Below are positions 16,617-17,880 of a DNA stretch of 28,381 nucleotides, piece by piece. Positions within the stretch are counted from its first letter, which is position 1. Each line of letters opens with the position of its first letter. A program made the position numbers and the translations under genes. Source of the DNA: a virus (Duplodnaviria > Heunggongvirae > Uroviricota > Caudoviricetes); the IMG/VR virus record IMGVR_UViG_2534681833_000008; one strand, written 5' to 3'. A model generated the notes under the pieces. It had not been told where the DNA came from, did no database searches, and saw nothing but the letters and a program-made list of their open reading frames with translations.

Positions 16617-17880
16617 TCAGCGAACGTAAATAGTGCCGCCGTTCTCTTTTTCCCATGCATCGCTACGTGCATAGCAAACATCGAGAAGTCTTCTTGCCGC
16701 AGTTTCCTCTAAACCCAATTCGACAACCAACTGCTCATGACGGCGGGTAACCACATCAAACAGGGTATGCAGCCCTTTAGTTGCCAGATCATCAATGAAT
16801 TCCGGTTCGAACGGCAGCTCTGCATCTGCTAACATAACCTCTTGCGCCCACTCAACTCGACGGACCAGTTCCGGGCGGCGGCTTTCCATCTCTTTACAGA
16901 TCAATTCATGGAAGAACTCTACCCAACCTTCCGGCTGGAACTCGCGGAAAATTGCCAACGGCTGGAAGTTTGGCATCAACCATTCGTTGATTCGGATATC
17001 AATGGCATAGCCCATGTCGCAGCAGAACTGATAAGCAAAGTCCAGCTTAGAAACGATATAAGGACGCTCGTTATTGAACTCTTTAGGCGATGAGATCCCA
17101 TAAGCCAGGAGGCGCGGGAAGAAGGAGATTTGCCCTAACGTCGGATGAAGTTTGCTTGCAGGGAAACGGCGCTCAGTAATGCCATACATTTCCTTCTTGA
17201 GCGTCGCAAATTTGGCATTCTCATTAACCAGCGCGGTAACCTCTGCTTTTTTATTAGCAAATGCCACGCGCGCTTCGCTTGCATCTTTAATAGTTTTTTT
17301 GAGCTGTTGGTTAAGGTCGGCGACCTGCTTACGCAGTTCCTGTCGCTCGCTTTTAGCTTTGTTATAGCGTTTCTCAAGGTTAAAAGGATCAAGTTTCATG
17401 ATCTCTTTATATTGAGATTTTAGCGTTGAAATCTGTGAGTTCCGCAGTTCAACCATCGCGGTCATTTCATTGAGTTTTGTTTCCAGCTCAATGCTTATAC
17501 GTTCGGCATTATCAGCACGCTGGTTGGCGTCATGCGTCGCATCGTCGATCGCGTCCTGTTGCTGGCGTTTCAAATGTTCAATTTGCAGCTGAAGCTCTTC
17601 AATTTCTTTACCCTTCAGACCGAGATCCAACTGCATATTTTCAGCTGCATCTACCAGGGAGTTATGGCTATCAGCTTCTGCGTTATAAACATCAATAAGC
17701 TGTGCGTGAAGCATCTCCGCTGACTGAACCGCATTATCAAAAAAAACGTGCTGTGAGGTCATCACAACTAACGCGGCGTTGCGCGGCCCGGATGTTCTGG
17801 ATAATGGCCGGGATACCGGCATTCAGGACATCAGGGATAGATACATTTTCGATTGATTGGTTTTGTGCTGAAGTGCTCAT
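16617..17880 (-). CDS. Coiled-coil protein with C-terminal globular domain, interrupted by a frameshift in an A8 tract
   Basis: ATG at 17880 sits 1 nt after the upstream gene's stop and opens a 47-codon frame that stops right after the homopolymer at 17739-17746. The 401-aa track ORF (16617-17822) continues in the -1 frame and has no SD at its own candidate starts. One fewer A gives a continuous 420-aa protein. Confidence 0.55.

Follow-up and report, generated by a model that had tools for sequence, protein, structure and literature searches.

In phage P1, the gene pmgS is 1263 nt long, begins 1 nt past the pmgR stop codon, and, according to the P1 annotation, is transcribed from the promoter PpmgR under the C1 operators OpmgRa and OpmgRb; its name in phage P7 is shtB. 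Whereas pmgR is essential in P1 (PMC9024508), pmgS was found to be non-essential in a genome-wide P1 CRISPRi screen (PMC10695390), as well as in an earlier deletion survey as listed in the table of the CRISPRi paper (PMC10695390, PMC9024508). Among 77 P1-like plasmids, pmgS is nevertheless one of 21 genes kept at full length (PMC9603915); given this rank among the most conserved genes, it presumably has a function that plaque assays miss. The gene is known, and so is a broken version of it: on plasmid unnamed6 of Escherichia coli ETEC1731 (NZ_CP122822.1), the locus QDY29_RS26410 is already marked by RefSeq/PGAP as a "frameshifted" hypothetical protein. The copy analyzed here carries the identical allele and is an ordinary pseudogene.

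The pmgS region of the window (i.e., the whole stretch of DNA that was analyzed, 28,381 nt) shares 99% identity with the pmgQ-pmgR-pmgS-pap segment found in phage P1 and its relatives, and the gene itself is 99.2 to 99.9% identical at the DNA level to pmgS of P1, P7, and P1-like plasmids. P1 pmgS (AAQ14063.1) and P7 shtB (AAQ07558.1) thus correspond to the window gene in position (pmgQ-pmgR-pmgS-pap), start, and C1 operators, and alignment leaves a single difference that matters: where P1 and P7 read CGT TTT TTT GAT (T7) and encode an intact 420-aa protein, the window has T8, giving a 47-aa stub and an out-of-frame remainder. The ETEC1731 plasmid, with a 99.97% identical backbone, differs from the window in that its hsdR carries IS1203 and in that it has none of the one-base indels in c1, gene 6, and gene 7 that the window alone carries. 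The features of the locus, all on the minus strand, are as follows.

16562..16597, minus strand: intrinsic-terminator-like hairpin (11 pairs, 6 of them G-C) and T-run, just 3' of the pmgS stop.
16617..17880, minus strand: pmgS (P1) / shtB (P7) pseudogene, whole gene; 1264 nt versus 1263, with one extra T.
16617..17738, minus strand: remaining 3' portion of pmgS, beginning at GAT (Asp48) and read in the +1 frame up to the stop.
17737..17880, minus strand: 5' fragment of pmgS, 47 codons plus TGA, with a start coupled to the pmgR stop (TGA-A-ATG).
17739..17746, minus strand: T8 tract (A8 on the plus strand); the wild type is T7, with CGT TTT TTT encoding Arg-Phe-Phe.
17746..17774, minus strand: RNA hairpin in pmgS that reaches to the first U of the tract; 11 pairs, interrupted by an internal bulge, at -10.4 kcal/mol (z = -2.8).
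17882..18100, minus strand: pmgR, upstream in the operon, intact; 72 aa, PHROG 3177.
18115..18180, minus strand: promoter PpmgR with the C1 operators OpmgRa (18164-18180) and OpmgRb (18115-18131), located through their identity with the annotated P1 sequence; aligned to P1, the region has two mismatches, both outside the operators.

The minus-strand ORF 17880..17737 encodes 47 aa (MSTSAQ...DDLTARFF) followed by TGA, as read from the ORF list and the sequence; its 47-codon sequence is MSTSAQNQSIENVSIPDVLNAGIPAIIQNIRAAQRRVSCDDLTARFF. The ATG at 17880-17878 sits 1 nt past the TGA of pmgR, and the stub's own stop, the TGA at 17739-17737, takes its T from the last base of the T8 run, which is the only homopolymer of at least 8 nt in the window. 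A first-pass annotation made from the letters alone had already placed the start at ATG 17880, 1 nt after the upstream stop, with a frame that terminates right after the A8 at 17739-17746; both points hold, and the pmgS start annotated in P1 coincides with this ATG. The rest of pmgS lies within the long ORF 16617..17822, which is 401 aa from its first ATG (17822) and 381 aa ("MTSQ...") from ATG 17762, the start that public gene callers assign to the 3' part. Reading of the sequence 5' of these two ATG codons found nothing like a Shine-Dalgarno (SD) sequence, in agreement with what had been said of the internal candidate starts. The long ORF had, however, been assigned to the -1 frame; the arithmetic (17880-17822 = 58 = 3x19+1) puts it at +1 relative to the stub, i.e., with one base skipped. 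With one T removed, the ORF runs unbroken for 420 codons, and its product is the same as WP_000107690.1 from plasmid pSvP1_F. In annotation, the pair of ORFs at 17880-16617 should be entered as one frameshifted pmgS pseudogene, and not as a short gene followed by a gene of 381 or 401 aa.

The first proposal, that a one-base difference in tract length divides what is a single gene of 420 codons, is borne out by P1, P7, and homologs down to 27% identity, all of which encode single proteins of ~420 aa. Homologs at 71%, 69%, 63%, 53%, and 27% identity are 419 to 428 aa long and cover the whole query, and a 72/73-aa gene lies directly upstream also in those at 53-71%. In the homolog alignment, the break point falls inside the best-conserved N-terminal motif, AQRRVxCDDLxxRFF-DNA, within which R45 and F46 are invariant and F47 nearly so. 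Orthologs that begin at the internal Met (MTSQ) behind a conserved short upstream ORF had been named as the outcome that would speak against a split gene; the homologs are all continuous. We likewise rejected a genuine short upstream ORF with an internal start for the window itself, "MTSQHVFF" being the conserved DDLTARFF read out of frame. The run is absent from the more diverged genes, with five homologs (53-71% identity) coding Arg-Phe-Phe as CGG TTC TTT, CGC TTC TTC, CGC TTC TTT, or CGT TTC TTT; judged from these codons, the T run is an accident of codon choice within the P1/P7 clade.

With the extra T removed, the 420-aa product aligns to PHROG 1660 ("PmgS-like") at an E value of 1e-195, its residues 1-420 covering profile positions 1-403 of 405. 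In Pfam, PmgS belongs to no family and drew sub-threshold coiled-coil matches only; the earlier description of the product as a coiled-coil protein agrees with the note in the P1 annotation, but every Pfam match that points the same way remains below threshold. Of the traits that mark a PmgS-family gene, end-to-end homology and the pmgQ-pmgR-pmgS-pap neighborhood are both present, and the single frame of ~420 codons is missing. By its sequence, the window gene is a pseudogene copy of the PmgS family (PHROG 1660) that, as encoded, would supply no functional member.

The reading we favor, and consider very probable, is that a genuine, inherited T7-to-T8 insertion has made pmgS a pseudogene that is clonal in a sublineage of P1-like plasmids and is tolerated there, with neither recoding nor a switch involved. 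Replication slippage on the run is the most likely source of the insertion, a single T gained within CGT TTT TTT (Arg45-Phe46-Phe47). The extra T places TGA directly after Phe47, such that the normal start yields a 47-aa stub, and leaves the other 373 codons in the +1 frame with no proper ribosome-binding site, resulting in a pseudogene and presumably a functional null. The allele is inherited clonally in a sublineage of P1-like plasmids bearing EcoR124-type hsd genes next to pap, among them those of DEC7A/DEC7B, EPECa12, and the porcine strain ETEC1731, as well as in many sequencing runs. Its persistence would be permitted by two circumstances, namely that P1 can grow lytically and form plaques without pmgS and that the element is also kept as a plasmid; P1-like elements, phage-producing or not, endure in plasmid form. 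The break can thus be tolerated because pmgS is dispensable for P1 plaque formation. Nonetheless, a true pmgS null might be costly somewhere, given the conservation of the gene across the 77 P1-like plasmids, and T8 may be an incomplete null since UUU_UGA can shift +1. P1-like plasmids in porcine and diarrhoeagenic E. coli have in any case carried a broken pmgS across several strains, which fits the dispensability of the gene for plaques despite its high conservation.

To gauge how common the allele is, an exact 90-mer (T8) and an exact 89-mer (T7) were used as probes against 5,426 complete E. coli genomes (670 matching records) and PLSDB (673 plasmids). The T8 probe matched 1 of the 670 records and 1 of the 673 plasmids, both being NZ_CP122822.1 (ETEC1731 unnamed6; pig, Belgium). 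The T7 probe matched 313 of the 670 records exactly, and the rest, in a spread sample, had the same 89-nt length with SNPs; on this basis, which is partly that of sampled rows, ~99.7% of ~670 public P1-like plasmids are put at T7 with an intact 420-aa product. Judged by match lengths, the extra base was present in 0 of 19 phage records, and T6 occurred in one record (pJSMCR1_2) among those inspected. More copies occur among public contigs: the exact 47-aa stub was found on 129 of them (146 index blocks), including those of E. coli DEC7A, DEC7B, EPECa12, and ETEC1731 along with many Logan assemblies built from public sequencing runs, and the 381-aa remainder on 112 contigs, where in DEC7A it is named "pmgS". 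The intact protein of the same haplotype was found on at least 1000 contigs. In the DNA of Logan SRR12827410, DEC7A, DEC7B, JABTXU01, and ETEC1731, T8 occurs in identical context; in two further T8 loci (L022 and L024), a flanking SNP differs (GCG-CG versus GCA-CG), which indicates that the T8 insertion arose at least two times. Plasmid pSvP1_F is nearly identical to the T8 plasmids yet has T7, indicating that tract length changed very recently, in either direction.

Shortened tracts are also present in public data. T5 versions encode 46-aa stubs, and the deposited phage vB_EcoM-813R1 (ON470617.2) has T5, with its pmgS annotated as two hypothetical proteins. We rejected T5 as a second real allele, as 3 of 3 T5 loci examined (GCA_974494275.1, SRR27186976, and ERZ1714329) are full of other deletions at homopolymers and CCWGG sites, a pattern typical of unpolished long-read assemblies.

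Among the alternatives to a plain inherited pseudogene, the first to be weighed is that full-length, 47-kDa PmgS is still made from the T8 allele, either via a +1 slip of tRNA-Phe on UUU_UGA in the manner of RF2 or from transcripts that lose one U. We judge such a leaky or recoded gene to be quite unlikely. At the level of translation, T8 does create UUU UGA U, thereby joining a shift-prone codon to an in-frame stop, as CUU_UGA or UUU_UGA does at RF2-type sites; a minority of species naturally use UUU_U for the RF2 shift (PMC5009743). The likeness to the prfB (RF2) frameshift extends to the presence of a Phe/Leu codon before an in-frame UGA and to a +1 slip onto UUU that restores the long frame (PMC5009743). 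Unlike prfB, with its SD stimulator, UGA-C, and conserved arrangement, T8 pmgS is a rare mutant: the sequence upstream (CACAGCACG) offers no SD-like stimulator (CUCACAGCACG stands where RF2-type sites have one ~3 nt upstream), the stop context is UGA-U followed by UAA in place of the weak UGA-C, and the frameshifted arrangement, far from being kept in orthologs, occurs in the single complete record noted above, with the diverged homologs all in frame and free of the run.

At the level of transcription, the features that would promote rescue are the -10.4 kcal/mol hairpin directly 5' of the U8 run and precedents for slippage elsewhere. Hairpins adjoining a slippage motif promote one-base deletions in transcripts, as in the Roseiflexus IS630 element (PMC5009743), and runs of eight A's undergo productive slippage in some organisms, with ~10% rescue reported for an A8 run in human apoB (PMC1088944). 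The window gene resembles Roseiflexus IS630 and the 9A/9T genes (Thermus dnaX, Shigella mxiE) in having a coding-region run with a nascent-RNA hairpin directly 5' of it (PMC5009743). It is unlike them in that its run is 8 instead of 9, in that run and hairpin are missing in homologs, and in that the normal gene needs no slippage. Selection against slippage-prone runs is evident from nine nt in many bacterial genomes (PMC1088944), and with the ~9-nt threshold taken from that work (programmed transcriptional slippage in bacteria usually relies on a conserved run of at least 9 A/T), the tract falls short at 8 here and 7 in the wild type. In E. coli, errors made while transcribing homopolymers grow more frequent with run length and are nearly always insertions, mostly of +1, which would leave T8 unrepaired, and fewer than 1% of deletions start in runs (PMC5574713); repair of T8 requires -1 or +2. 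With >99% of relatives plainly in frame, there is no sign of selection for recoding.

P1 and P7 also have the hairpin at 17746..17774, there followed by U7, and the 53-71% homologs lack it; although it has the look of a terminator or of a stimulator of slippage, it is probably incidental. A conserved attenuator formed by the hairpin and the U-run was considered and rejected, the structure being missing in those homologs and the number of terminator-like structures in the region, 3 versus 1.9 +/- 1.3 in shuffles, lying within chance expectation.

A weaker form of rescue would leave T8 as a hypomorph, with a few percent of full-length PmgS arising via the UUU_UGA slip or hairpin-aided loss of one U. 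We give this a slim chance, though one that has some appeal, as the allele has spread over several strains with the gene otherwise undamaged in clean assemblies; a hypomorph, if true, would explain the persistence of T8 in several strains without further decay of the gene. The "savior" indels with low-level compensatory frameshifting in the G-run of herpes simplex thymidine kinase would be comparable, there too a one-base change in a 7-base run being mostly inactivating with a trace product possible (PMC5009743). The trans-frame junction peptide of a rescued product would be FFDNAVQSAEMLHAQ... / FFDNAVQSAEMLHAQLIDVYNAEADSHNSLVDAAENMQLDLGLK. For the wild type it would follow that the same UGA, and with it the same 47-aa peptide, could be reached through a -1 slip on U_UUU_UUU_G or an extra U in the mRNA.

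A second alternative is that the true tract is T7 and that the extra T is a homopolymer miscall in the window's assembly. We hold this to be very unlikely, even though the assembly would seem prone to such errors, having four other private one-base indels in conserved genes (1447, 23860, 23874, and 25478). Miscalls of this tract do exist elsewhere, not only as T5 in the three error-ridden loci described above but also as T8 alongside several other 7-to-8 insertions in two further error-ridden assemblies (L023 and L008). An artefact should, however, be irreproducible in independent assemblies, and the identical T8 instead recurs on the 129 contigs, which come from independent projects. Over 3-20 kb, L006/L010, L022, and L024 show no indel apart from T8 (for L006, L022, and L024, over >3 kb against P1). 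Over 20 kb, Logan SRR12827410 differs from the window only by one copy of a 12-nt hsdS repeat and by three of the window's private +A insertions, and in this contig pmgS (47 + 381 aa) is the sole split gene, with genes 6 and 7 intact. ETEC1731 likewise has T8 but shares no private indel with the window. In other plasmids of that Belgian ETEC study (ETEC1730 and others), the identical 89-mer has T7, which speaks against a basecalling bias tied to this context. Systematic sequencing error, one of the two explanations put forward in the first-pass annotation, is thus contradicted by these assemblies. From the agreement among independent assemblies, T8 is real and inherited in one E. coli P1-like plasmid lineage.

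Drafts of two strains in this lineage have deletions of their own that are common to no other sequence: a T6-to-T5 deletion in pmgS of DEC7A (AIGC01000010.1; equivalent to window position 17252) and a T5-to-T4 deletion near pmgM of DEC7B (equivalent to window position 21407). These private deletions fit platform homopolymer errors in the drafts concerned.

The other explanation put forward, a slippage-prone on/off switch by which T7/T8 toggling would make pmgS a phase-variable contingency locus, is extremely improbable: lengths of T5, T6, and T8 do exist in public data, T8 is found on at least two haplotypes, and pSvP1_F (T7) is otherwise almost the same as the T8 plasmids, but the frequent length polymorphism with both states common that defines such a locus is not seen (T8 in 1/670 and 1/673 records, T6 in one record among those inspected, the fetched T5 loci being error-ridden), diverged homologs with TTC TTT or TTC TTC do not maintain the run, and no phenotype is known to profit from switching a gene that is dispensable for plaques. 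T8 pmgS is, in short, neither a programmed frameshift nor a phase-variation switch, though trace rescue of the allele may occur.

The window's remaining frameshifts, called against ETEC1731, pSvP1_F, P1, the Logan contig, and DEC7A/B, are of another kind. In c1 (ORF 711..1535, plus strand), A7 is reduced to A6 at 1447 (1441-1447), with both ETEC1731 and P1 having A7; the ORF is 274 aa versus 283, and the last ~40 codons of the C1 repressor are shifted, such that the immunity repressor would be altered if the indel were real. Tail gene 7 (plus strand) has +A at 23860 and +A at 23874, leaving 126 + 86 aa versus 242, and gene 6 (tail length, plus strand) has A5 extended to A6 at 25478 (25473-25478), leaving 188 + 180 aa versus 338. 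None of the three +A insertions in genes 6 and 7 is found in P1, ETEC1731, the Logan contig, or DEC7A/B; pSvP1_F is without both gene 7 insertions, and its match ends before gene 6. All relatives examined have undamaged copies of c1, gene 6, and gene 7, and the private indels are probably assembly errors or, less likely, signs of very recent decay. The A6 at 25478 is probably what the first-pass annotation counted as the first of two independent homopolymer frameshifts in the window. Both are indeed present, but they differ in kind, that in pmgS being an inherited allele and the others being private to the window and resembling assembly errors. The case shows that a real homopolymer allele, recurring in clean independent assemblies, is separable from assembly noise such as the private indels of c1, gene 6, and gene 7.

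Downstream of pap, the window has an EcoR124-type type I restriction-modification cassette (hsdM, hsdS, and hsdR) at ~9600-15773 (plus strand), in the place occupied in P1 by pmgT-pmgV and upf genes. This hsd-next-to-pap layout is common to ~250 PLSDB plasmids. In the window, hsdR is an intact 1058-aa ORF (12597..15773), the same gene that IS1203 breaks in ETEC1731. Within hsdS, at 11841-11864 (plus strand), the 12-nt unit ACCGCTGAGCTT (Thr-Ala-Glu-Leu) is present in two copies, as it is by alignment in ETEC1731, pSvP1_F, and DEC7B; the contigs of Logan SRR12827410 and DEC7A have three. Two versus three TAEL repeats constitute the classic EcoR124I/EcoR124II specificity switch, and the sister plasmids probably differ in restriction specificity.
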